32,000 nucleotides of DNA, taken from assembly GCA_942492995.1 (NCBI GenBank), contig OW818653.1:270001-302000 (forward strand), read 5' to 3'. The notes beneath the pieces are model-generated. The model made no database searches. It was given only the letters and a program-made list of their open reading frames with translations, and was not told the DNA's origin. This DNA comes from an uncultured Erysipelotrichaceae bacterium (lineage in GTDB: Bacteria > Bacillota_I > Bacilli_A > Erysipelotrichales > Erysipelotrichaceae). Position numbers and translations under genes: made by a program. This document shows positions 13,302 through 31,697 of this stretch, piece after piece. Within the stretch, counting starts at the first letter, position 1, and each line of letters opens with the position of its first letter.

Positions 13302-14915
13302 ATGTTAAGATCGATGTATTCTGGGGTTTCAGGCTTGAAAGCCCACCAAACAAAAATGGATGTTATAGGGAATAATATTGCGAATGTAAACACATATGGA
13401 TTTAAGAGTAGTCGTACTACATTCTCAGAAGTATATTATCAGACAGTTCGTTCCGCATCAGGTGCTACTAACAACCAAGGTGGTATGAATGCAAGTCAAA
13501 TTGGTTATGGTGTGAATGTTGCGACTATTGATGTTCAACACACACGTTCTGGCTTCCAAATGACTGACAACGGTATGGATGTCGCTATCGCAGGTGAAGG
13601 ATTCTTCCAAGTTCAAGATGGTGATGGTAATGTGTTTTACACACGTGCTGGAATGATCAGAATTGACGCAAGTGGTAACTTAGTTGATCAGAATGGTAAC
13701 TTCGTTCTAGGTGTAAGTGGTGATCCTCTTGGTAAAGAACCTAGCACAAATAAAATCCAAATCCAAGTGCCTTCAACTGAACCTGTACAATCTTCTATTA
13801 CAGAAATTATAAATGGTTTATCTTTCTCACTAAATGCATCAAACGCATCAAAGGATGGAAATATTTCATTTAACTTTAGTAGTACTGATGATATGCCATT
13901 AGGACAAAAAGTTTCTGCGACCATCACATCAAATGGAATAAACATTAGTCTAAATGAAAATGAAACATTTAGTGATTTAAATGAATTAAATAACAGTATT
14001 AATCTTGCAATTCAAGAAGCTAATGGTGGTAAAGACCATCCAGCTGGTAGTTTCAATTTCGAACTATCAAATGGAAGTGTTGATTGGCCATTAACGGGTA
14101 AAGATATTACGAGTTCTGATTTTAATCCAGTTCTAGGTTCAATCACATTACCTCCTGAAATGGCAAATATGGGCTTTAAGTTGAGCACTGTATCACCGAA
14201 ATTCTCAGGTTCTGGGGATTTAGAAATGAACATTAAACATAATACAACACCGAATTCATTTACTGTTTCTGTTGAAATTAACGGAAAAATGTATACCGGT
14301 AATATTCCTGAATCCGCAAGTACAAGTGGAAGAATCAGATTAATTTCTGGAGATGAATCAATCGAATTAGAACATCCTGGATTTAACGCACTTGAAAATA
14401 AAAAGAATACAGATTCAATCGCAGATAATGCAAATCTCTTTCCAAGTAACATTGTTGTTACGAATGGCGCAATCGCATCAACACCAAGTAAATCATTAGG
14501 ATTTGGATCTAAATCATTTACGTTAAATGGTGGGACTGCTGGTGGTGCGCAAAGTGTATCAGATTTGAGTAATGTTGGGATTGGGGCAGATGGCGTTATT
14601 AGCGCTATCCATTCACAATTAGGACTTATTAATATTGGTCGAATGGATTTAGCGACATTCGAAAATCCACAAGGTTTAATTCAAGAAGGTAACACTTACT
14701 TCTCAGTTTCCGCAAACTCAGGTGATGCGAAAATAACGAATGCTGGATTAAATGGTTCAGGTGGTTTACAAGCTGGAGCACTTGAAATGTCCAATGTTGA
14801 CTTATCCAAAGAATTTGCGGACATGATTACAACTCAACGTGGTTTCCAAGCAAGTTCAAGATTAATCACTGTCTCTGACGAGATTCTAAATGAACTCGTG
14901 AATCTGAAACGATAA
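13302..14915 (+). CDS. flgE: Flagellar hook protein FlgE (long form with a large central insertion)
   Basis: N-terminal MLRSMYSGVSGLKAHQTKMDVIGNNIANVNTYGFK and C-terminal LEMSNVDLSKEFADMITTQRGFQASSR. About 280 aa of Asn/Ser-rich sequence lies between them. Confidence 0.93.
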   Translation: MLRSMYSGVSGLKAHQTKMDVIGNNIANVNTYGFKSSRTTFSEVYYQTVRSASGATNNQGGMNASQIGYGVNVATIDVQHTRSGFQMTDNGMDVAIAGEGFFQVQDGDGNVFYTRAGMIRIDASGNLVDQNGNFVLGVSGDPLGKEPSTNKIQIQVPSTEPVQSSITEIINGLSFSLNASNASKDGNISFNFSSTDDMPLGQKVSATITSNGINISLNENETFSDLNELNNSINLAIQEANGGKDHPAGSFNFELSNGSVDWPLTGKDITSSDFNPVLGSITLPPEMANMGFKLSTVSPKFSGSGDLEMNIKHNTTPNSFTVSVEINGKMYTGNIPESASTSGRIRLISGDESIELEHPGFNALENKKNTDSIADNANLFPSNIVVTNGAIASTPSKSLGFGSKSFTLNGGTAGGAQSVSDLSNVGIGADGVISAIHSQLGLINIGRMDLATFENPQGLIQEGNTYFSVSANSGDAKITNAGLNGSGGLQAGALEMSNVDLSKEFADMITTQRGFQASSRLITVSDEILNELVNLKR

Positions 14916-15976: not shown

Positions 15977-16750
15977 ATGGGTAAACAAAGAAGAAAACCG
16001 GCTGAAGGTGGAAGTAACGAATGGTTGAACACCTATGCAGATATGGTCACATTATTACTATGTTTCTTCATCCTGTTATTCACAATGTCTTCAATTGATG
16101 CGGAGAAATGGAAAACACTTATTCGTGCTTTCCAGGACCCATCTGAATTAGAAGAAATTGTTGATCAAAATGAAAATCCATCTGTAGAGAGCAGTGGGGA
16201 AGAAGTTGACATCGAGGATTTAAGCTTTCTTAAGGATCATATTGAACAATTAATCGATCAAAGTGTATTCTCAGCTGATGTCCAACTCTTAGGTAATGAG
16301 TCGATTGTATTTCTTCGTCTAAGCAACAATCTTCTGTTCTCAGGAGATAGCGCAGTACTTAGACAAAATACAATTGAATTTCTCGATTTAGTTGGAGATG
16401 CGCTAAAAGAATATGAAGAAGATATTATGTTTGTTCGTATTAATGGGCATACCGCAACCGTTGATGAACCAAGAAATGTTTCAGATCGAATTCTATCGAC
16501 AGAAAGAGCGAATGCCGTGCTTATGTATTTAGAAGATGTTAAAGGAATTGCGCCAAATAAACTTATCGCGATGGGGTATGGAAAGAACTATCCGATTGAT
16601 ACAAATGATACAGAAGAAGGTCGTTCTAAGAATCGAAGAGTAGAAATTCTAGTCATGGGTAAAAGTTTAGATGAAAATGCGAATTCAGAAGTATACCAAA
16701 TCTTAAGTGGAGAATTTGACGTAGATTTATACAATCAGTTTAATGATTAA
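15977..16750 (+). CDS. motB: Flagellar stator protein MotB (OmpA-like C-terminal domain)
   Basis: WLNTYADMVTLLLCFFILLF plug/TM with the conserved Asp. C-terminal peptidoglycan-binding motif NRRVEI. Confidence 0.92.
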   Translation: MGKQRRKPAEGGSNEWLNTYADMVTLLLCFFILLFTMSSIDAEKWKTLIRAFQDPSELEEIVDQNENPSVESSGEEVDIEDLSFLKDHIEQLIDQSVFSADVQLLGNESIVFLRLSNNLLFSGDSAVLRQNTIEFLDLVGDALKEYEEDIMFVRINGHTATVDEPRNVSDRILSTERANAVLMYLEDVKGIAPNKLIAMGYGKNYPIDTNDTEEGRSKNRRVEILVMGKSLDENANSEVYQILSGEFDVDLYNQFND

Positions 16751-16760
16751 AGGACGGGCT

Positions 16761-17522
16761 ATGGACATAATAAATAATATCTCAAATATGATTTCCTTAA
16801 GTATTGCGAAATCTCAATCAATTCAACATTGGGCAAATCGTATTATGGAAGTCATGTATTTAAAACATAAATCAATGATAATCATCGATAAAATCGAGAT
16901 TTTTGATTCGAAAGATTCAAATGAGGCAGATAAAGTTTATTATGCCATAGCTCAAATAGATTTAAACCAAAACCTTATGTTAGGTCTAAATAAGGATTTC
17001 GTACAACACTTTATACTTGATGATATAGAAAAGAATTGGGATGAATTTGATTACTCAATTGCGAATTCACACTTGAATGAACTGATTTCACATCTACAAA
17101 TGCGACCACATTATCAATTTAAACAAGTAGATGATATTGTAACAATCAATCAAGAAAAGTTAGTCATCTTAAAATTCAGTTATAACGTTAATCAAAAACC
17201 AATGTTTATTAGTTTAACCATGACACTAGATTTATTGGAATCCTATCTACATCGATATCCAGATCCACGTTCTAAGAATCTCGATGTGATGATGGATGTA
17301 CCTATCACTGTTCGTGTTGAGTTAGGTAGTATACAACGTAAAGTTAAGGAGATTATGGAATTTAGCCAAGGTACTCTATTAGAACTTGATCAAACCATAA
17401 ATTCCTCATGCAAAATAATTGTAAATAACCACACGATTGCACATGGAGATGTTGTGGAAGTAAATGGTAATTTCGGTGTTATGATGACAAAAATTGACGA
17501 TAAAGTCGATTTTATGAAGTGA
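16761..17522 (+). CDS. FliN/SpoA-domain switch-complex protein with an unassigned N-terminal domain
   Basis: The C-terminal ~75 aa (VPITVRVELGSIQRKVKEIMEFSQGTLLELDQ...HGDVVEVNGNFGVMMTKI) is a clear FliN/SpoA domain. I cannot assign the ~175 N-terminal residues to a family. The ATG at 16761 follows AAAGGA. Confidence 0.7.
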   Translation: MDIINNISNMISLSIAKSQSIQHWANRIMEVMYLKHKSMIIIDKIEIFDSKDSNEADKVYYAIAQIDLNQNLMLGLNKDFVQHFILDDIEKNWDEFDYSIANSHLNELISHLQMRPHYQFKQVDDIVTINQEKLVILKFSYNVNQKPMFISLTMTLDLLESYLHRYPDPRSKNLDVMMDVPITVRVELGSIQRKVKEIMEFSQGTLLELDQTINSSCKIIVNNHTIAHGDVVEVNGNFGVMMTKIDDKVDFMK

Positions 17523-20729: not shown

Positions 20730-22781
20730 ATGCAAAAATATCTTAAAGGTACAAGTTCACTATTAATCGTATTAATCGTATTACTTATCATTATTCCTTT
20801 ACCTTCTTGGTTATTAGATATGATGTTTATCCTAAACTTAGCAATTTCATTTATTATTTTACTTACTTCTATGAATATTACAGAATCGCTACAATTTAGT
20901 TTATTTCCTGCAATACTTCTTATTACCACATTATTTAGACTCGCATTAAATATCTCATCAACGCGTCTTATTCTTCTTGAGAATGGATATGCAGGGGAGG
21001 TTGTTAAAACATTTGGCGACTTCGTTATTCGTGGGAATCCATTTGTAGGTTTGGTTATATTTCTAATTATTGTTGTGGTTCAATTTATCGTTATTTCAAA
21101 GGGGAGTGAGCGTGTTTCTGAAGTTAGTGCACGTTTTACTCTAGACGCAATGCCAGGTAAACAAATGGCAATTGATGCGGATTTATCATCCGGTTTAATT
21201 GATGAGGAAACTGCACGTGAACGACGTAAAAAAATACAACGTGAAGCAGATTTCTTTGGCGCAATGGATGGGGCAAGTAAGTTTGTCAAAGGGGATGCGA
21301 TTGTATCGATTATCGTAACCTTCATCAATCTTATCGGTGGATTAATCATCGGATTTACGACCAATGTAGGTGGATTTCAAGAAATCATAAACATTTATTC
21401 AACCGCAACGGTTGGGGATGGTCTTATCTCACAGTTCCCAGCTTTATTAATATCTGTCGCAACCGGTATGATTGTGACGCGAAGTGCATCTGAAGCGAAT
21501 ATTAGTACAGAATTAGTAAAACAATTTACGAGTCAACCGCGTGTACTCATTATGTCTGGTGGAATCATACTAGGACTTATCTTTATTCCTGGATTTCCTA
21601 AACTACAAATAATAGTGATGGGATTAATGTTAATCGGACTAGGTGTTACACTAGAGCGAAATGAAAATCGACTAGCGACTGCACTCGATAATAATCTAAA
21701 CATTAGTGAAGAAATTACGTCTGAAACGAGCTACTATCGCAATATTGATCATATCTATGGATTACTAAATGTAGAGACAATAGAAATGGAATTTGGTTAT
21801 AGCTTGATTCCATTGATTGATGAAAATAGTGGTGGAGTATTTATTGATCGAATTATCATGTTCAGAAAAAAATATGCGTTAGAAATGGGACTTGTTGTAC
21901 CAAGTGTAAAGCTAAAAGATAGTTCAAGTCTTAATCCCAATGAATATACGATAAAACTTAAAGGCGAAGAAATCGCACGTGGTGATGTCCTTGTCGATCA
22001 TTTACTAGCCATCGCGGCAAATGAAGTTAAAACAGAGATTGATGGAATCGAAACGATTGAACCCGCATTTGGATTAAGCGCAAAATGGATAACTGAAAAG
22101 AATCGCATTAAAGCAGAGATTGCTGGTTACACATTAATTGATCCAACCAGTGTTATCGTGACACATTTAAGTGAAGTGATTAAGAAACATGTAGATGAAT
22201 TATTAACACGTCAAGAACTACATCATATTCTTGATAATCTCAAGAAATCGAATGAAACACTTGTAAATGATTTAGTCCCAAATGTTGTATCAATTCAAAC
22301 ACTTCAAAAAGTATTGTGTAATCTCTTGAAGGAACAAGTCTCAATCCGTGATTTAGAAAGTATTTTAGAAACACTCGGTGATTATGCACCATCCATACGT
22401 GATATTGATGTATTAAGTGAATATGTAAGACAATCCTTAAAACGAACAATTACATCTAAGTACATCGAAAATCGACAACTTAAAGTTATAACGCTGGACG
22501 TAAAAATAGAAAATATGATCATGGAAAGTGTTAAGAAAGTAGATAATGGTTCTTACTTAGCCTTAGATCCTAACTCTATACAAAATATTATTCAGAGTAC
22601 GACCAAAGAAATTGACCGTGTAAAGGATTTAGTTCCATATTCTATCGTATTAACATCTCCAATCGTTCGAGTTTACTATAAAAAATTAATCGATCAGTTT
22701 GTCCCAAATATCGTCGTTTTATCCTTCAATGAGATTGATACGAATGTGCAAATTCAAGCACTCGCAAATATTGCCTTATGA
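20730..22781 (+). CDS. flhA: Flagellar export gate protein FlhA
   Basis: 683 aa, with FHIPEP-type motifs (ARFTLDAMPGKQMAIDADL, GAMDGASKFVKGDAI). Confidence 0.96.
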   Translation: MQKYLKGTSSLLIVLIVLLIIIPLPSWLLDMMFILNLAISFIILLTSMNITESLQFSLFPAILLITTLFRLALNISSTRLILLENGYAGEVVKTFGDFVIRGNPFVGLVIFLIIVVVQFIVISKGSERVSEVSARFTLDAMPGKQMAIDADLSSGLIDEETARERRKKIQREADFFGAMDGASKFVKGDAIVSIIVTFINLIGGLIIGFTTNVGGFQEIINIYSTATVGDGLISQFPALLISVATGMIVTRSASEANISTELVKQFTSQPRVLIMSGGIILGLIFIPGFPKLQIIVMGLMLIGLGVTLERNENRLATALDNNLNISEEITSETSYYRNIDHIYGLLNVETIEMEFGYSLIPLIDENSGGVFIDRIIMFRKKYALEMGLVVPSVKLKDSSSLNPNEYTIKLKGEEIARGDVLVDHLLAIAANEVKTEIDGIETIEPAFGLSAKWITEKNRIKAEIAGYTLIDPTSVIVTHLSEVIKKHVDELLTRQELHHILDNLKKSNETLVNDLVPNVVSIQTLQKVLCNLLKEQVSIRDLESILETLGDYAPSIRDIDVLSEYVRQSLKRTITSKYIENRQLKVITLDVKIENMIMESVKKVDNGSYLALDPNSIQNIIQSTTKEIDRVKDLVPYSIVLTSPIVRVYYKKLIDQFVPNIVVLSFNEIDTNVQIQALANIAL

Positions 22782-23509
22782 TCGAACTAGAAATAAAGAA
22801 TTATCAGATTACCAGAGATATTAATCATCGTAATGATTTATTAGAACAGACTTTACCTATCATAAAAAAAGTAGCCAAACAAACACGTAATTTGTATATG
22901 AATCACATGGAGTTTGATGATGTTGTATCAATTGGAATTCTCGCAATGATTGAATGTATTGAACAATACGATGAATCTAAAGGCTTGAGTTTTGAAGCCT
23001 ATGCATACACAAAAGTGAAATATCGATTAATCGATGAGCTGGGTATGAATGGGTTTATCCCAAGACGTATACGTCAAGAAGCTAAACACATAAACAATGC
23101 GTATGATGAATTGGCGAATCAACTTATGCGCGAACCAAGTGATTTAGAATTAGCTGAGTTTATGCAAATTGATTTAAGTGAAATTAGTAAGAATCATCAG
23201 GAAATGGCTTGGTCACAATTATTAAGTTTTGAAGAGATTAATGAAAATTATGGAGATAGAGATCTAATTGATCATAAGAATCTTAATCCAGAACAGTTAT
23301 TCTTCAAAAAAGAAATGGTTAATGAAATCACTGAAGCGTTAAAGTTGTTAAGTGAAAGAGAACAAATACTAATCAGTTTATATTATTACGAAAATTGTCG
23401 ATTAAAAGAAATTGGTGAAATCTTTGAAGTTACTGAAGCTAGAGCAAGTCAAATGCATGCTCAAGCGATAAAGAAACTAAAAGATATTCTAAAGGAGAAA
23501 ACCATATGA
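22778..23509 (+). CDS. fliA: Flagellar sigma factor FliA/SigD (sigma-28)
   Basis: 243 aa, with sigma-70 regions 2, 3 and 4 (region 4 HTH LKEIGEIFEVTEARASQMHAQAIKKL). ATGA overlap with the flhA stop. Confidence 0.9.
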   Translation: MIELEIKNYQITRDINHRNDLLEQTLPIIKKVAKQTRNLYMNHMEFDDVVSIGILAMIECIEQYDESKGLSFEAYAYTKVKYRLIDELGMNGFIPRRIRQEAKHINNAYDELANQLMREPSDLELAEFMQIDLSEISKNHQEMAWSQLLSFEEINENYGDRDLIDHKNLNPEQLFFKKEMVNEITEALKLLSEREQILISLYYYENCRLKEIGEIFEVTEARASQMHAQAIKKLKDILKEKTI

Positions 23510-24987: not shown

Positions 24988-25920
24988 ATGAATCATACCT
25001 ATCATGAAACGGGTGAGACTATACGCAAATATGATTTTAGATCGCCTAAGAAGTTCGGTAAGGAACAATTACGTACAATCGAAGATTTACATGAAACATT
25101 TGTACGCAATTTATCGTCTTATCTAAGTGCTTTAACACGACTGTATTGCGAAGTTCAAATTACCCATATCGAGAAACAACGTTACTACGAATACATTAAT
25201 ACAGCTCAAGAACTAGCGGTTTGTGCGAATTTTGATATTACACCATTGGATGAAACGATTGATGAGATAAGTATGCTAGTGACGATTAATCCGGATATCG
25301 GATACTTTCTAATCGATAAATTACTGGGTGGAACTGGTAATGAAACACAAATTGAACGTGATTTTACTGAAATTGAATGTGCTTTATTAGAAAATATATT
25401 TGGGAAACTAACACGTCAAATTGAGATGAGTTGGATGAAACAACTAGAAATAGAAGCTCGTATGAAGAGTTTAGAAACGAATCCAAGAGTCATACAATTA
25501 ATGATGCCAGAAGAGATTGTATTGGTTGTGGAATGTAAAGTAGTACTTGGAGAATTAAATAGTAGTTTAAAACTATTGTTACCTTCTGTATTATTCGAAA
25601 CACTCATGGAAAAATTCACTCCGAAATTTATACGTAATACAAAACGACATGATGAAAGTAAAGAAGAAATCCAAAAGAATGCGATCTTAAATTCATTAAA
25701 AGGTGCAGAAGTTGAACTGAAAGTTGTATTAGATGAAATCGAAATTGATTTACACGATATCTTACAACTTGAAGTAAACGATATTATTCCACTATCAAAA
25801 CGATTTGATTCAAATGTGACAGTGAATGTGGATGATAATCCATGGTTTGAGGCTAAATTAGGTGAGACTAAACAACGTAAAGCAGTTAAAATTGAACGAT
25901 TAATTGAGAAGGAGAAATAA
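24988..25920 (+). CDS. fliM: Flagellar motor switch protein FliM (lacks the usual N-terminal CheY-P docking peptide)
   Basis: 310 aa. It starts about 10 aa before the conserved KYDFRSPKKFGKEQLR motif, has the GGTG motif in the middle domain, and ends in a SpoA-like domain. Confidence 0.88.
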   Translation: MNHTYHETGETIRKYDFRSPKKFGKEQLRTIEDLHETFVRNLSSYLSALTRLYCEVQITHIEKQRYYEYINTAQELAVCANFDITPLDETIDEISMLVTINPDIGYFLIDKLLGGTGNETQIERDFTEIECALLENIFGKLTRQIEMSWMKQLEIEARMKSLETNPRVIQLMMPEEIVLVVECKVVLGELNSSLKLLLPSVLFETLMEKFTPKFIRNTKRHDESKEEIQKNAILNSLKGAEVELKVVLDEIEIDLHDILQLEVNDIIPLSKRFDSNVTVNVDDNPWFEAKLGETKQRKAVKIERLIEKEK

Positions 25921-25921
25921 T

Positions 25922-26854
25922 ATGTCAATGAACTCAGAACAAGAGAAAATCAATAATATTAAAGACAGTGTCCAACACGCATTAATAGAAGGTATTCGTA
26001 ATATTCATAGTCTTTTTGATTCATCCTTCGAATGTACAGATGTACAAATCGATAGTAAATTTCCTGCAGAATTAGCCCTTCAAATTCAAAAAGATGCGAT
26101 TATGATTCAAACAACATTTAGCTCAGATTATTCTGAATCAAGTTTAATGTTAGTTGATTTAGATAGTACAAAATACCTTATAAAACAATTAATGAATCAT
26201 GATGATGAAGAAATCGTATTGGATGAATTTGGATTAAGCGCATTTAGTGAAATTACAACATTGTTTTATCAAGGATTCACCCAACATATCAGTCAATTCT
26301 TAGGGAAAACGATTAAAAATGATCGATCAAAAGTAATCCAAATTGATCATAAAACGCAAGGCATTTCACCATTTAATGCTAAAGTTCTTGCGGTACGTTT
26401 CAACTTAAAACAAAATGATCAATATATTCCAATGCAGTTATATTTCGATTTCGCAAGTTTTACAGGACTCGTTGAAAATTTAAGCGATAAGAAATCAAAC
26501 TTTGAGACGAAATCTAATAAACAAGATGAAATTCAAGTAAAAGAAGTTCGTGTCCCAAAATATACAAATATGAATGAAAATGTGAGTGCTAATCCATCTA
26601 AGAATTTAGATCTAATCATGAATGTTCCGCTTAATGTGTCAATTGAGATAGGAAAGACGAAACGCAAAATTAAAGATATTATGAGTTTTGCGTCAGGTTA
26701 TGTCCTTGAACTTGAGAAACAATTAGGTGCACCAGTTGATATTGTTGTGAATGGACAATTGATCGCACGAGGTGATGTCGTTGTGATTGATGAGAATTTT
26801 GCGATTAGAATTACTGAAATAATTAGTACTACAAGCTTATTACCAAATGACTAA
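25922..26854 (+). CDS. fliY: Flagellar motor switch protein FliY (CheC-like region plus FliN/SpoA C-terminal domain)
   Basis: C-terminal MNVPLNVSIEIGKTKRKIKDIMSFASGYVLELEK...ARGDVVVIDENFAIRITEI. The middle region has CheC-like repeats (LSAFSEITTLF). The ATG at 25922 follows GGAGAA. Confidence 0.85.
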   Translation: MSMNSEQEKINNIKDSVQHALIEGIRNIHSLFDSSFECTDVQIDSKFPAELALQIQKDAIMIQTTFSSDYSESSLMLVDLDSTKYLIKQLMNHDDEEIVLDEFGLSAFSEITTLFYQGFTQHISQFLGKTIKNDRSKVIQIDHKTQGISPFNAKVLAVRFNLKQNDQYIPMQLYFDFASFTGLVENLSDKKSNFETKSNKQDEIQVKEVRVPKYTNMNENVSANPSKNLDLIMNVPLNVSIEIGKTKRKIKDIMSFASGYVLELEKQLGAPVDIVVNGQLIARGDVVVIDENFAIRITEIISTTSLLPND

Positions 26855-27772: not shown

Positions 27773-27799
27773 AGAACCACTGAAAAGTGGTTCTTTTCT
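27773..27799 (+). terminator. Rho-independent terminator of the flagellin gene
   Basis: AGAACCACT-GAAA-AGTGGTTCT followed by TTTCTT. Confidence 0.85.
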
Positions 27800-27826
27800 T
27801 AAGTTTTATTGAGAATAAACGATATA
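27800..27826 (+). promoter_or_regulatory. Near-consensus sigma-28 (FliA/SigD) promoter
   Basis: TAAG (27800-27803), exactly 15 nt, ACGATATA (27819-27826). Compare with the TAAA-N15-(G)CCGATAT consensus. Confidence 0.7.
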
Positions 27827-27855: not shown

Positions 27856-29196
27856 ATGGCAGATTCATTAAAAATTAGTCCAACAATGATTAAACAACCT
27901 GCAGTATCAAGAAATCAACCTGATCCACAGGTTCCTTTTCAGATTAAAGATGTCACTAAAGTAAATAATCTAAATACTTCTAAACAAACTTCATCTCAGA
28001 ACCAAACATTATTAAACAGTGATGGACCTAAATTACTTCTTGATATCTTACGTGATCCAGAATCCACAACTCAATTTCTCCATAGTTTATATCTCTTACA
28101 AGAAGTTAATCAATTAATTCCGTTGGATAATTTGAGTTTAAATAGTGAGTTAGAATTGTTATTCCAATCGATATTTCTTAAATCAGATTCTCTTTTAACT
28201 GAATTATTAAATCAATCTAAACAAACAAGTGTATTTAAAGGTGAATTGTTTGATTGGATTAGAAACTTATTGGTTCAATATCCAATGAGTGAAAATAGTT
28301 TGATTCAATTATTGAAATCGATGAATCAAATAAAATCAAAACCACAGTATCGTGAAAGTTTATTAAACCAAGCTGAACATTTAGAACAAGAATTCATTAA
28401 TCCTAAACAGAATGAGAGTATTAAACAGTTTATTGATTCTCTACAAAATAATAGTGATCAATTGTCTAAACAATTAAAAGATATGATTCAAGTATTAGAG
28501 AAGAGTATTCTATATAATCCACAAACCCAAAAAAATCTTGGTATTATGCAGTACAATCTATCGAGATATATGATGGAAATAGATATAAATGATATTCTAG
28601 AATTATTTAAAGACGTATTAGCAGATGATTTCATACAATTTGAGATATTGGTTAAAGAATATATTAAACAACCGTATCAGAGTTTAAATACATCGAATAT
28701 GTTGGATAAGATAACGGAATTATTAGATAAACAGATAAAACATTCAAGTCAAATAGACATACCCTATAGAAAGTTAGAGAAGATAGTAATATCACTATTA
28801 TCTTCCCCATCAAATTTTGTGCCATTATTACACTTTATACTTCCTATGCAAGGCAATATACTACAAGCATATTCAGAAGTATGGGTAGATATAGAAGAAC
28901 CAAAGGTTAAATCTGATTCATCAATTCATGTATTATGTGCGATTGAAATAGAACAATTAGGGCACTTTGAAATCGAACTCTGGAATCGAAATAATTCCAT
29001 TAAAATAGATGTCTATTGTCCTGAATCACTCTTAGAACGATTCAAACCAATCATTTCGAAATTCTCAAAACATATATTAGATAGTACATACAATTTAGAT
29101 AATGTACATTTATTACCATTAACCCAAAAACGTTCATTAATGGATGTCTTTGAGCATTTAAGTCTAAAACAAAGTGGGTTAGATCAATATGCGTAA
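27856..29196 (+). CDS. Uncharacterised ~446-aa protein with a disordered polar N-terminus and a FliK-C-terminal-like (YlqG-like?) C-terminal region
   Basis: The ATG at 27856 lies downstream of the sigma-28 promoter, whereas the ORF-track start at 27787 lies in the terminator. The N-terminal ~70 aa are Q/N/S/T/P-rich. The C-terminal LLHFILPMQGNILQAYSEVWVD...IHVLCAIEIEQLGHFEIELWNRNNSIKIDVYCP loosely resembles the Flg_hook fold pattern. 8-nt overlap with the next gene. Confidence 0.5.
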   Translation: MADSLKISPTMIKQPAVSRNQPDPQVPFQIKDVTKVNNLNTSKQTSSQNQTLLNSDGPKLLLDILRDPESTTQFLHSLYLLQEVNQLIPLDNLSLNSELELLFQSIFLKSDSLLTELLNQSKQTSVFKGELFDWIRNLLVQYPMSENSLIQLLKSMNQIKSKPQYRESLLNQAEHLEQEFINPKQNESIKQFIDSLQNNSDQLSKQLKDMIQVLEKSILYNPQTQKNLGIMQYNLSRYMMEIDINDILELFKDVLADDFIQFEILVKEYIKQPYQSLNTSNMLDKITELLDKQIKHSSQIDIPYRKLEKIVISLLSSPSNFVPLLHFILPMQGNILQAYSEVWVDIEEPKVKSDSSIHVLCAIEIEQLGHFEIELWNRNNSIKIDVYCPESLLERFKPIISKFSKHILDSTYNLDNVHLLPLTQKRSLMDVFEHLSLKQSGLDQYA

Positions 29197-29458
29197 GAAA
29201 AATAAAGCTGTTGCCTTAAGCTATAACCTCACTAAAAATAGAGCTCCAATTGTTGTCGCAAGTGGCTATGGAGAGATCGCAAATCGGATAATTCATATCG
29301 GAGAAAAACAAGGAATACCAATCTATCAAGATGAACAAAGTGCTAGTATTTTATGCATGTTGAAGTTGGGACAAGAGATTCCAATCGAACTTTATGAATT
29401 AATCGCAAACTTATATGTAGAATTACTGAATCATGCCGAAATTGTGGTGGAAAAGTAA
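29189..29458 (+). CDS. FlhB C-terminal-domain paralog (YlqH / FlhX-like, EscU/YscU/FlhB family fragment)
   Basis: 89 aa. It aligns by eye with FlhB residues just after the NPTH site (KAVALSY..APIVVASGYGEIANRII.IGEKQGIPIYQDEQSASIL...EIPIELYELIANLY versus HYAIAVQY..APIILAKGMDSLALKIIEVAEKHNIPSIENKPLARGLY..EIPEKYYHAVAEVL). Confidence 0.8.
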   Translation: MRKKNKAVALSYNLTKNRAPIVVASGYGEIANRIIHIGEKQGIPIYQDEQSASILCMLKLGQEIPIELYELIANLYVELLNHAEIVVEK

Positions 29459-29534: not shown

Positions 29535-30305
29535 ATGAGTAGAGTGTTTACGATTACAAATCAAAAAGGTGGAGTTGGTAAAACAACAACGACAATAAAT
29601 CTTGCGTCATCTTTGAAATATAGAGGGTTTAAAGTATTAGTTATCGATATGGATCCACAAGGTAATTTATCCTTTTGTGTAAATGCAGATACTGTTTTAA
29701 GCGCAACAATCTATGAAGTCTTAAAAGGTGAAGTTAAGATGCAATACGCTATACAAAGAACAGGTATTGTGGATATCGTGGCAGCGAATATCTTACTTAG
29801 TGGAATAGAACTTGAATATACAACTGCGGGTCGTGAATTCTTACTTAAACAAGCAATTGCAGTTGTGAAGGATCATTATGATGTTGTATTAATTGATACG
29901 CCTCCTGGATTAGGAATCCTTACGATAAATGCGATGACCGCAAGTGATGGTATTGTCATACCGATGGTTGCGGATATCTTTAGCTTACAAGGTATCACTC
30001 AACTTTATGAGACAGTATTACAAGTTCGTAAATTCTCAAATCCTGATTTAGTAATTGAAGGTGTGTTGTTAAACAAATACAATTCAAGAATTCATTTAAA
30101 TAAAGAAGTAAAAGGCGCTGCGGAACTTGTCTTGAATGATTTGAAAGTTAAATTATTTAAAACGACCATTCGTTCTAGTATCACTGTCGCAGAAGCACAA
30201 TCGACACAAAAAGATCTTGTGACAGGATATAAACAAAATGGTGCTGCACTTGATTACATTAAATTCTCTAAAGAATTGATAAAAGGGGAAAAAGATGTCA
30301 AATAA
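29535..30305 (+). CDS. Orphan ParA/Soj-family P-loop ATPase
   Basis: Deviant Walker A ITNQKGGVGKTTTTINL, VLVIDMDPQGN, Walker B VVLIDTPPG. The ATG at 29535 follows GTGAGG. No parB-like gene is adjacent. Confidence 0.85.
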   Translation: MSRVFTITNQKGGVGKTTTTINLASSLKYRGFKVLVIDMDPQGNLSFCVNADTVLSATIYEVLKGEVKMQYAIQRTGIVDIVAANILLSGIELEYTTAGREFLLKQAIAVVKDHYDVVLIDTPPGLGILTINAMTASDGIVIPMVADIFSLQGITQLYETVLQVRKFSNPDLVIEGVLLNKYNSRIHLNKEVKGAAELVLNDLKVKLFKTTIRSSITVAEAQSTQKDLVTGYKQNGAALDYIKFSKELIKGEKDVK

Positions 30306-30684
30306 TCGCGCAATTGATAAAGAAGCAATGTATAAAAAAATCATGCCAAGTGCTGCTCAAAAAGAACGAGTTAGTGAAATGAGTGAAGAAACTCCAAATG
30401 TCACTAATACACCTAAAGTATCTTATTTTCAACCTAAGATACTCGTTAATTTGGCAGAACTAGCCGTAAAAGAACGTTTGAATGAAGCGCTGGATCGGTT
30501 TAAGTGTTGTGAATGTGATCGATGTATAAAGGATATACTCGCAATTGCGGTGAATACGTTACCACCAAAATATATTGTAAGAAGCGAACAAGATATCGCT
30601 ATTGAACTAAGAAAATATGAAGGTGATGTCGTTGGGGCACTCGTAAATGCAGTAATAACAGTAAAGAATAATCCAAGACACTAG
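30295..30684 (+). CDS. ComFB-family protein (late competence development protein ComFB domain)
   Basis: LVNLAELAVKERLNEALDRFKCCECDRCIKDILAIAVNTLPPKYI matches the ComFB Cys-cluster core. 11-nt overlap with the parA-like gene; RBS GGGGA. Confidence 0.75.
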   Translation: MSNNRAIDKEAMYKKIMPSAAQKERVSEMSEETPNVTNTPKVSYFQPKILVNLAELAVKERLNEALDRFKCCECDRCIKDILAIAVNTLPPKYIVRSEQDIAIELRKYEGDVVGALVNAVITVKNNPRH

Positions 30685-30695
30685 GGGGAAATGTT

Positions 30696-31310
30696 GTGTT
30701 GATTGATGAAGAATATCGATTTGCGAATTGTGAGCTTAGAACAATTAATAACGATTTATTAACAAAAGGTAAAATTATAAAAATTGGGAGTGATTTTCTA
30801 GAGATAAGTAATGAACTTGGTTCTACAAGTTTAAATCGATATGAAAAACGCATTAAAGTTATTATCAATCATGCATACTTGGAATCTAAAGTAATTGAAG
30901 GCGATTTATATATTCCGACGATGGAGTTCTTTCGTGTAATTGATACGAAAACAGTCATGGAAAAGGAACAACGTAATTTCTTTAGAGTCAATGTGAATAT
31001 AGATGCAGTAGCCGGAGTTGGACCTCGAGGGGGAGGACCGATTAAAAAGTATCCAGTTATAATCAATGATCTTAGTTTAAATGGTGCATTAATGATTACG
31101 AATACAATCATTGCACAACGCGCAAAAATAGAATTAACATTCGAAATCGATAATAATGAACTCATTCTTGATGGACAAGTCGTACGTTGTCGATTGAATT
31201 CCGATAATATGTATTGTTATGGAGTACGCTTTATTGATATCGATAATGCGAATTCTAATCTAATATGCCAATATTTGTTTAAAAAACAAAAAGAAGTAAT
31301 AGAAATTTAA
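30696..31310 (+). CDS. PilZ-domain c-di-GMP receptor, MotI(DgrA/YpfA)/YcgR-like
   Basis: RxxxR (QRNFFRVNV) and DxSxxG (INDLSLNGAL) c-di-GMP-binding motifs in the C-terminal half, and a YcgR-N-like beta-rich N-terminal half. 204 aa. GTG start 6 nt after GGGGGA. Confidence 0.8.
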   Translation: MLIDEEYRFANCELRTINNDLLTKGKIIKIGSDFLEISNELGSTSLNRYEKRIKVIINHAYLESKVIEGDLYIPTMEFFRVIDTKTVMEKEQRNFFRVNVNIDAVAGVGPRGGGPIKKYPVIINDLSLNGALMITNTIIAQRAKIELTFEIDNNELILDGQVVRCRLNSDNMYCYGVRFIDIDNANSNLICQYLFKKQKEVIEI

Positions 31311-31320
31311 TAAAAGTACT

Positions 31321-31347
31321 TAAGTTCTTCAAAAATAGTTCGATATA
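31321..31347 (+). promoter_or_regulatory. Near-consensus sigma-28 promoter for flgM
   Basis: TAAG (31321-31324), exactly 15 nt, TCGATATA (31340-31347). Confidence 0.75.
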
Positions 31348-31385: not shown

Positions 31386-31697
31386 ATGATGAAAATTAAT
31401 CCAAATAAAATTAGTCAAATATACCAAACAAAACCAAACACAACACACACTTCAAAAGAATCAAATACTATTAGTAATGTTGATAAAATTGAAGTACGTA
31501 ATCACTCTAAACAGAGTATTAAAATAAAAGATATCAAAAATGATTTAACACAAGCAATTAATTCAACTCATTCACAGGAAAAAATCAACTTGTTAAAAGA
31601 ACAAATCAAAAATGGACAATATGAAGTTAAACATAAACACGTAGCAGAAGCTATTATTGCGTTTAGTGAAACTATGTTGGGAGATAAACATGATTGA
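31386..31697 (+). CDS. flgM: Anti-sigma-28 factor FlgM
   Basis: 103 aa with a polar N-terminus and the C-terminal KINLLKEQIKNGQYEVKHKHVAEAII motif typical of FlgM. Sigma-28 promoter upstream. Confidence 0.85.
   Translation: MMKINPNKISQIYQTKPNTTHTSKESNTISNVDKIEVRNHSKQSIKIKDIKNDLTQAINSTHSQEKINLLKEQIKNGQYEVKHKHVAEAIIAFSETMLGDKHD

Follow-up and report, generated by a model that had tools for sequence, protein, structure and literature searches.

A strictly co-inherited ParA–ComFB gene pair, commonly beside flagellar genes, in Clostridia and Erysipelotrichia

Genes for a ParA-family ATPase and a ComFB-family protein, a putative receptor for cyclic dinucleotides (c-di-NMPs), form a conserved pair in Clostridia and Erysipelotrichia. 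The pair was analysed from a window of 32,000 nucleotides of an uncultured Erysipelotrichaceae bacterium (assembly GCA_942492995.1, contig OW818653.1, positions 270,001 to 302,000 of the forward strand; coordinates below are those of this window unless a locus is named), in which the two genes are followed by a gene for a PilZ protein and then by flgM. The initial annotation of this DNA gave all three genes, their coordinates, overlaps, spacing, motifs and flagellar context correctly, with Pfam gathering scores widely exceeded. Its further reading of the three genes as a unit did not survive a co-occurrence check: ParA and ComFB are strictly linked, while PilZ joins them only in Erysipelotrichales. 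The conserved unit is the ParA–ComFB pair, PilZ belongs to a separate module, and the region is best explained as the end of a late flagellar operon, probably dependent on sigma-28, that brings together two independently conserved modules. With somewhat more confidence than doubt, we propose that a c-di-NMP-responsive ComFB modulates motility by way of a dedicated ParA, on which its N-terminal peptide would act, and that PilZ is a separate brake.

Co-inheritance of the pair is strict across Clostridia and Erysipelotrichia. A scan with a ComFB profile, run on a single genome for each GTDB species, yielded 136 relatives. The best 80 loci among them were then analysed by BLAST at the level of open reading frames (ORFs). 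An intact ParA of the same clade lies directly upstream of ComFB in 78 of these 80 loci; of the other two, L057 has a frameshifted ParA upstream and L051 has ComFB at a cut contig end. All seven ParA homologues that were looked up (72–57% identity) have ComFB directly downstream. The two genes overlap or sit a few nucleotides apart, and in the window the start of ComFB overlaps the end of ParA by exactly 11 nucleotides. Pairs occur in Erysipelotrichales, in many Oscillospiraceae (Caproiciproducens, Caproicibacter, Anaerotruncus, Provencibacterium and Hydrogenoanaerobacterium among them), in Lachnospiraceae (Eisenbergiella tayi, Diplocloster and Hungatella) and in metagenome-assembled genomes (MAGs) labelled Peptococcaceae and Tissierellia. 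Some genes are split in MAG contigs (ParA in L057, 40-568; PilZ in L016, 2443-3046; FlhA in L042, 352-2192), which are assembly or frameshift errors or pseudogenes.

ParA-linked ComFBs share a conserved N-terminal peptide that we propose as the ParA-interaction motif. In the window it comprises residues 5-19 (RAIDKEAMYKKIMPS; 30307..30351, + strand). The consensus in 86 ParA-linked ComFBs is (A/S)(K/R)(T/S)K(K/R)(E/D)IDKELMYKK(I/L)MPS, with the core [IF]DKExMYKK[IL]MPS and a net charge of about +3; P18 is found in 86/86, M17 in 84/86, D8 and M12 in 81/86 each, and K9 in 78/86, with R in the other eight. Behind the peptide is a variable A/P/E/S-rich linker of 31–65 residues across the clade, which occupies residues 20-48 of the window ComFB and is disordered. 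An AlphaFold2 model of this protein has a helix at 9-16 and predicted local distance difference test (pLDDT) values <50 at 24-40, within the linker. Among the remaining ORFs of 93 loci, none carries the motif or anything closely resembling it. It is also absent from Bacillus subtilis ComFB (BsComFB) and from the only complete ParA-less ComFB captured, in L021; when ComFB and PilZ were used as queries in word-indexed protein searches, all matches were close relatives (at least 43-51% identity), with no ParA-less ComFBs for context. The L021 protein is a second, stand-alone ComFB of an Oscillospiraceae locus (97 residues, 14283-14576, PF10719 1.7e-25), about 4 kb from the ParA-linked copy. It retains the sequence NPRH near its C-terminus, and NPRH is ruled out as a mark of ParA-linked ComFBs because this ParA-less copy has it too.

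Proteins that partner ParA/MinD ATPases bind them via a positively charged, disordered N-terminus, with the remainder of the protein serving cargo or regulatory functions, and genes for ATPase, partner and cargo cluster (PMC10241942). ParB needs no more than a short N-terminal peptide, made up of aliphatic and basic residues, to activate ParA, and two such peptides juxtaposed in a dimer give more activity (PMC12462528). The ParA-linked ComFB has a basic N-terminal peptide, a disordered tether and a gene beside that of the ATPase, which are the properties described for partner proteins in PMC10241942. By analogy, its peptide and linker would be the hallmark of a ParA/MinD partner. ParA–ParB, McdA–McdB, MinD–MinE, PomZ–PomXY, PpfA–TlpT and ParC–ParP resemble the pair in having the ATPase gene beside the partner gene, in the Walker-B-proximal pocket loop and in a partner whose basic N-terminal peptide is joined by a disordered linker to a self-associating domain. 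Unlike the partners in those systems, ComFB has a second-messenger receptor domain and not a DNA-, cargo- or membrane-binding one, its peptide differs from the LG(R/K)GL motif of ParB, and its ATPase is missing both nucleoid-binding arginines and a membrane-targeting helix. The pair thus appears, again by analogy, to work like a ParA/partner pair in which the new element is that the partner is a cyclic-dinucleotide receptor. The 2025 ComFB papers describe flagellar, pilus and hfq neighbourhoods and mention neither ParA nor Soj nor MinD in their main text; full-text searches found no paper linking ComFB to ParA, Soj, MinD or FlhG.

The ParA-family ATPase of the window has 256 residues (29535..30305, + strand; AAA_31 E=1.6e-51, CbiA 7e-25) and begins with an ATG behind a GAGG Shine-Dalgarno sequence. 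A longer ORF from 29433 was rejected, since it runs into the upstream gene and start positions in 86 homologues give it no support. Its Walker A motif, KGGVGKTT, is the deviant form that defines the ParA/MinD superfamily. The clade keeps its catalytic residues: K11, K16, D38, D40 and D121 are present in 85/86 members, and only one gapped, fragmentary sequence departs from this. The 86 clade ParAs have a median mutual identity of 57% and are at most 40% identical to Myxococcus xanthus ParA, Helicobacter pylori Soj and a mycobacterial orphan ParA. When these references are included in a neighbour-joining tree, the clade forms a single group, which is a weak test with only three of them. In the PDB, the mycobacterial orphan ParA (4PFS, 3e-43) and M. 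xanthus ParA (8RAY, 1.6e-42) match best. The mycobacterial and corynebacterial orphan ParAs (4PFS/5IHP; PldP-type) also have no adjacent ParB; they differ in being only ~35% identical and in that the actinobacterial protein retains the PRxVR DNA-binding arginines. The clade was mapped onto M. xanthus ParA, with the numbering checked via the D60A and Q62 positions. The Walker-B-proximal loop, which contacts the ParB peptide in M. xanthus ParA (L150, G151, L152) and makes up the core of its partner-peptide pocket, is kept as L126, G127 and I128. Four pocket residues are changed in a clade-specific way relative to M. xanthus ParA (D110 to L, L118 to F/Y, E176 to Q and L192 to C/S); the authors of the M. 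xanthus ParA study proposed such pocket changes for paralogous systems that avoid crosstalk.

The surfaces by which known ParA and MinD proteins attach to a matrix are altered or missing in this clade. The M. xanthus DNA-binding arginines R235 and R238 (R238 corresponds to R189 of B. subtilis Soj) are replaced by S214 and T217 in the window ParA and by S/N/E and A/V/S/T across the clade, so that the arginines of PRNVRLSE are absent; a clade-specific R213 stands one residue before S214, in a column where the references carry Pro. At the N-terminus, 10 residues precede the first Walker A residue (K11), and at the C-terminus the clade consensus extends ~2 residues past the last residue aligned to the references (~5 in the window protein). 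Judged from these alignment ends, there is no room in the clade for a C-terminal membrane-targeting helix of the MinD/FlhG type or for the N-terminal activator motif of FlhG. MinD models fall far below their cutoffs on the window ParA, and no curated NCBIfam model reaches its cutoff for ParA or ComFB. On sequence grounds, the clade is neither canonical Soj (no ParB, no DNA-binding arginines) nor FlhG/MinD (no membrane helix). The label 'Soj-type' in the initial annotation goes too far, given the low identity to chromosomal ParAs and the missing Soj arginines. Public names for clade ParAs (e.g., P0043, P0045 and P0067) include 'Sporulation initiation inhibitor protein Soj' and 'chromosome partitioning protein'. 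As ParB and the Soj DNA-binding arginines are both missing, such names are probably a systematic mis-annotation of ComFB-linked ParAs.

ComFB is an established family of receptors for cyclic di-GMP (c-di-GMP) and cyclic di-AMP (c-di-AMP) (PMC12448109, PMC12265714), as the initial annotation had noted. Its members bind c-di-GMP, which ComFB does as a dimer (PMC12448109), and inhibit motility in B. subtilis and Shewanella oneidensis. In B. subtilis, this inhibition depends on c-di-GMP and is independent of MotI (PMC12448109, PMC12265714), and its target is still to be identified (PMC12265714). The window protein, a putative c-di-NMP receptor of 129 residues (30295..30684, + strand; PF10719 E=8.7e-15, 55 bits vs a cutoff of 25), has its domain at residues 49-125, with a CCxCDRC zinc motif, and ends in NPRH (residues 126-129). 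Its AlphaFold2 model (pLDDT 77) matches BsComFB (4WAI) with a template modelling score of 0.71-0.75 and a root mean square deviation of 2.1 A in Foldseek, and also matches 8HJA; both sequence family and fold therefore place it in ComFB. The zinc cluster aligns with that of BsComFB as C72, C74 and C77. Eight residues from the list of dimerisation and c-di-GMP contacts in PMC12448109 have equivalents in the window protein (N52=N4, E55=E7, D80=D33, A83=A36, I84=L37, N87=N40, Y93=Y46 and I94=V47). Y55, which is also on the list, has no mapped equivalent. The c-di-GMP contact K41 of BsComFB is T88 here (codon 30556-30558); T, A or N occupies this position in the window protein and in ComFBs at least 66% identical to it, whereas 66/86 clade members, among them the more distant ones, have K/R. 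The change may mean altered ligand affinity or specificity in the T88 subclade. Compared with 4WAI and the ComFB/CdgR family, the ParA-linked subfamily has the same Pfam family, fold, zinc Cys cluster and eight dimerisation/ligand residues. It differs from BsComFB in the extra N-terminal peptide and disordered linker, in being encoded directly after ParA and never with comFA/comFC and, in the window, in having T at the K41 position.

Pairs are found beside flagellar genes in 45/78 cases, in at least four arrangements. Five of the 78 intact pairs lie inside a late flagellar operon, as does that of the Logan loci L001-L007, 30 diverge from flgM/flgN-flgK-flgL-fliW-csrA-fliD-fliS, and 10 have other flagellar genes in the locus; the remaining 33 lack flagellar genes within 10 kb. 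The class of 10 includes three loci, L042, L085 and L090, where the pair closes the main flagellar operon in the order flhB-flhA-fliA-flgF-flgG-FapA(-CheC-CheD)-ParA-ComFB. In L048, L049, L086 and L092 the pair is co-directional with, and upstream of, flgN-flgK. Genes for the flagellar assembly protein A, FapA (L042 4617-6182; L085 7581-8894; L090 7084-8679), lie directly upstream of ParA in L085 and L090, with cheC and cheD in between in L042. Unbiased clustering of neighbouring ORFs gives FlgL and FlgK (37 loci each), FlgN (35), FliD (33) and FlgM and FliW (28 each) as the commonest neighbour families. MreC and PBP2 are neighbours at 12-13 loci, only in the Caproiciproducens group; mreCD synteny is confined to this one genus-level group and so counts as one evolutionary event. 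In the Caproiciproducens/Caproicibacter group (L010, L012, L022-L024 and others), the pair stands alone, followed by a DUF436 gene, with no flagellar genes within 10 kb; mreC-mreD-PBP2 comes a few kb further downstream, as does a MinD-like gene. B. subtilis comFB is located just upstream of flgM-flgK (PMC12265714), its comF operon abutting yvyF-flgM, and the ParA-linked subfamily shares with it both this position and the link to motility. Because of this shared position, a place beside flgM may be ancestral for ComFB. The junction from flhA to fliA contains no flhF or flhG in five loci, namely the window, L001 (1062-3850), L042, L085 (3078-5984) and L090. This arrangement, which is unlike the B. 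subtilis fla/che operon, occurs in Erysipelotrichaceae and in Oscillospiraceae/Clostridiales MAGs.

The third gene of the window trio encodes a two-domain PilZ protein of 204 residues with a GTG start (30696..31310, + strand; PF07238 E=8.6e-14, 52 bits vs a cutoff of 22.5), and begins 11 nucleotides past the ComFB stop. Motifs R93-N-F-F-R97 (RxxxR) and D125-L-S-L-N-G130 (DxSxxG) are invariant in 19 homologues, and the AlphaFold2 model (pLDDT 79) consists of two beta-barrels, an N-terminal PilZN-like one and then PilZ. Foldseek ranks MotI/DgrA 5VX6 first (7.9e-8), followed by PlzA 7MIE, MrkH, YcgR 5Y6F and VCA0042 (full-length matches, E=8e-8 to 3e-6). A MotI-like PilZ protein with intact motifs, as first proposed, is thus borne out at the level of architecture. 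phmmer finds no match to the protein among PDB sequences, and none of the Pfam PilZN/YcgR models covers its N-domain. MotI/DgrA (B. subtilis, 5VX6) and YcgR (Escherichia coli, 5Y6F) share with it the PilZN-PilZ two-barrel structure, the c-di-GMP motifs and a flagellar gene setting; they differ from it in an identity of 11-16% and in that the window PilZ is encoded after an FlhB-C-like gene. PilZ lies directly behind ComFB only in Erysipelotrichales (the window, L001-L007 and L014-L018), in nine distinct lineages with 62-100% ParA identity. In 13/20 PilZ hits, such as that of Eisenbergiella tayi (L034), it follows the genes for a conserved protein of no assigned function and an FlhB-C-like protein as a separate operon. 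In the window, the former is the first gene of the operon (446 residues, ATG 27856; 27856..29196, + strand), with no Pfam or NCBIfam match, and its homologues precede FlhB-C-like genes in 18 related loci. The latter encodes 89 residues (29189..29458, + strand) and matches PF01312 (1.9e-15) on its C-terminal part only and TIGR00789, 'FlhB-like flagellar biosynthesis protein', at 4e-24. Wherever the gene for the ~450-540-residue protein occurs, the FlhB-C-like gene comes next, and many Clostridia have PilZ after that (L034 15428-17291, L085 11732-13529 and others). These genes (with PilZ in part of the loci) are a conserved flagellar module with an uncharacterised first member, and the trio of the window arises because ParA–ComFB sits between the FlhB-C-like gene and PilZ.

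The window is almost wholly one + strand flagellar gene cluster of a low-GC Bacillota genome, and its nearest public genome is an Erysipelotrichaceae MAG (L014; ComFB identity 98%). The cluster starts with flgB, flgC, fliE, fliF, fliG, (fliH), fliI, fliJ, fliK, flgD and flgE, continues with motA, motB, a FliN-like gene, fliO, fliP, fliR, flhB and flhA, and then has a sigma-28-type fliA, two rod genes, fliM, fliY/N and flagellin with its terminator (27773-27794). The genes flhA (20730-22781, + strand) and fliA (22778-23509, + strand) overlap by 4 nucleotides, with no gene between them. Three C-ring genes carry FliMN_C domains, where a fliM/fliY pair is the usual set: the FliN-like gene after motB (16743-17522), fliM (24988-25920) and a FliY-like gene with weak CheC similarity (25904-26854). 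The operon with ParA follows, in the order 446-residue protein, FlhB-C-terminal-like protein, ParA, ComFB and PilZ, and the window ends with flgM and the genes behind it. The anti-sigma-28 factor gene flgM (31386..31697, + strand; PF04316 1.9e-7, TIGR03824) opens the late operon flgM-flgN-flgK-flgL that lies downstream, and the gene order downstream of flgM is also present in L001, L004, L006 and L014. As the initial annotation had stated, ParB, FlhF and FlhG are absent from the window: none is found by Pfam among 37 ORFs of at least 89 residues (all + strand ORFs of at least 100 residues, three genuine minus-strand genes and the 89-residue FlhB-C-like gene), a set that leaves out four minus-strand ORFs of at least 100 residues (three run antisense to flagellar genes, and the fourth lies where the window ends), and the ParB-box motif is absent from the window and from 93 loci in a regular-expression search. 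The term 'orphan' for this ParA describes the locus and not the genome, as the window is 32 kb of a ~2.0-Mb contig.

Two near-identical TTAAGTT...CGATAT elements, likely sigma-28 promoters in which TTAAG would be the -35 box, sit in the region's only two intergenic gaps. The first sigma-28 (FliA/SigD)-like promoter, TTAAG-N16-CGATAT (27799..27825, + strand), follows the flagellin terminator and lies 30 nucleotides before the ATG of the 446-residue protein; the second (31320..31346, + strand) lies in front of flgM. The pattern, which was defined post hoc, has exactly two matches in the 32 kb, both intergenic and on the + strand, with 0.15 expected. The B. subtilis SigD consensus is TAAA-N15-GCCGATAT, to which the TTAAG element is similar. 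From their sequence and position, the two elements suggest sigma-28-type late promoters, which would make ParA–ComFB–PilZ part of the late class of flagellar genes. A search with TAAA-N13-17-CGATA, the pattern of B. subtilis SigD, gave 3 hits vs 3.45 expected, all inside genes, and this pattern was discarded. A general sigma-28 regulon for the pair finds too little support, with sites before ParA in only 4/76 other loci, where ~1 is expected.

The reading that we favour treats the region as two modules. The first would be a two-protein ParA system composed of a ParA of a distinct clade and ComFB as its cognate partner. Binding of c-di-GMP (or c-di-AMP) to the ComFB dimer would alter ParA engagement or stimulation of its ATPase, so that the second-messenger level would set the ParA cycle; ligand-dependent presentation of two peptides is plausible because ComFB is a c-di-GMP-binding dimer. 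The pair is beside flagellar genes in most lineages, and its output would therefore most likely be flagellar function, assembly or placement. The second module would be a PilZ protein of the MotI/YcgR class, an independent c-di-GMP-dependent brake or clutch on the motor. What is observed are the gene identities, their strict co-inheritance, a peptide confined to those ComFBs that are linked to ParA, the flagellar surroundings and the protein folds; contact between ParA and ComFB, ligand gating and a motility output are what we infer from them, and this distance weighs against the proposal. Other points also count against it. A ParA with neither canonical nucleoid-binding arginines nor a membrane-targeting helix would have no known positioning matrix. 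Ligand affinity in this organism is uncertain, given T/A/N at the K41 position. The 33/78 pairs with no flagellar gene within 10 kb are mostly those of the Caproiciproducens/Caproicibacter group, so the output may not be strictly flagellar. The sigma-28-like pattern is post hoc, and similar sites are rare upstream of ParA elsewhere.

Another explanation takes ParA, ComFB and PilZ as one trio, in which the orphan ParA would replace FlhF/FlhG as the spatial regulator of flagella and be tuned by two dinucleotide receptors. The window, where flhA overlaps fliA and flhF and flhG are absent, accords with this idea, as do the flhA-fliA junctions with no MinD/FlhG-like gene in L001, L042, L085 and L090 and the fact that each of the nine distinct Erysipelotrichales versions keeps the trio with flgM behind it. 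Shared with FlhG/FleN are a ParA/MinD-superfamily ATPase in flagellar loci, a connection between c-di-GMP and a Walker ATPase (FleN-FleQ) and fla operons without flhF/flhG. The ATPase itself is unlike FlhG/FleN: it lacks both a C-terminal amphipathic helix and an N-terminal extension for the FlhF-activating motif, its sequence is nearer to ParA/Soj than to MinD, and its partner is ComFB and not FlhF, FliA or FleQ. BcsQ with BcsR/BcsE in cellulose secretion likewise pairs a ParA/MinD ATPase in a c-di-GMP-controlled machine with a dedicated c-di-GMP-binding protein, but the window ParA matches BcsQ models weakly (PF06564 8.6e-8; TIGR03371 67 bits vs a cutoff of 158), and both the receptor fold and the machine are different. 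Outside Erysipelotrichales, PilZ is away from the pair and follows the module of the 446-residue protein and FlhB-C-like protein, 33/78 pairs are away from flagellar genes, and the absence of flhF/flhG is known for loci only and not for whole genomes. On balance, a trio with this function is improbable.

We consider it just as improbable that the pair is a regulatory switch and not a positioning system, with c-di-GMP-responsive control of late flagellar expression exerted via sigma-28/FlgM or another transcription factor. FleN-FleQ and the action of Soj on DnaA are precedents, the pair is most often beside or divergent from the flgM operon, and a ParA without canonical DNA-matrix residues would suit such a role. 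Cyanobacterial ComFB/CdgR proteins are reported to interact with transcription factors (bioRxiv 10.64898/2026.03.27.713163) and to control cell size (PMC10068817). Pfam and NCBIfam, however, detect no DNA-binding domain in ParA or ComFB. A somewhat smaller probability falls to an explanation in which the cargo that the pair positions or regulates is not flagellar (candidates are chemoreceptor arrays, the machinery of division or elongation and type IV pili) and its flagellar neighbourhood is due to co-regulation only. This would fit the 33/78 pairs without flagellar neighbours, the mreCD/PBP2 and MinD-like genes a few kb downstream in the Caproiciproducens group, the chemotaxis genes nearby in L004, L008 and L042 and the ComFB genes in type IV pilus operons of Thermoanaerobacterales (PMC12448109), but the mreCD synteny is limited to one genus-level group, whereas the flagellar linkage recurs across several families and arrangements. 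That ParA is a plain chromosome or plasmid partition ATPase with meaningless ComFB/PilZ adjacency, as the annotation of homologues as 'Soj' or 'chromosome partitioning protein' would have it, is scarcely credible and is contradicted by the linkage statistics, with adjacency kept in 79/80 genomes, no ParB-box motif in the window or the 93 loci, at most 40% identity to chromosomal ParAs, no DNA-binding arginines and a position of the pair in complete genomes that is variable and mostly far from coordinate 0.

ComFB was recognised in 2023–2025 as the third widespread family of c-di-GMP receptors, with its motility target stated to be unknown (PMC12265714), and many ParA/MinD ATPases are called 'orphans' whose partner has not yet been found (PMC10241942). 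Strict ParA–ComFB linkage and the partner-type peptide connect these two open problems, the motility target of ComFB and the partners of orphan ParAs. A bolder form of the proposal, which we put forward only tentatively and hold to be possible but rather doubtful, is that this ComFB subfamily is the missing partner of the 'orphan' ParA clade and that c-di-NMP gates its peptides onto ParA, which would set flagellar function, number or placement in Clostridia and Erysipelotrichia with flagellar operons that lack FlhF/FlhG; a ParA-family ATPase would then be the kind of effector through which ComFB inhibits motility. Hundreds of Clostridia proteins labelled 'Soj' or 'chromosome partitioning protein' fall in this non-ParB clade and call for a correction of their annotation. 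Gut anaerobes that are flagellated and in culture also carry the pair, among them Eisenbergiella tayi, Diplocloster, Anaerotruncus colihominis and Caproiciproducens, which makes experiments feasible. The pairing thus offers a testable idea, that a nucleotide second messenger could act through the partner protein of a ParA ATPase.

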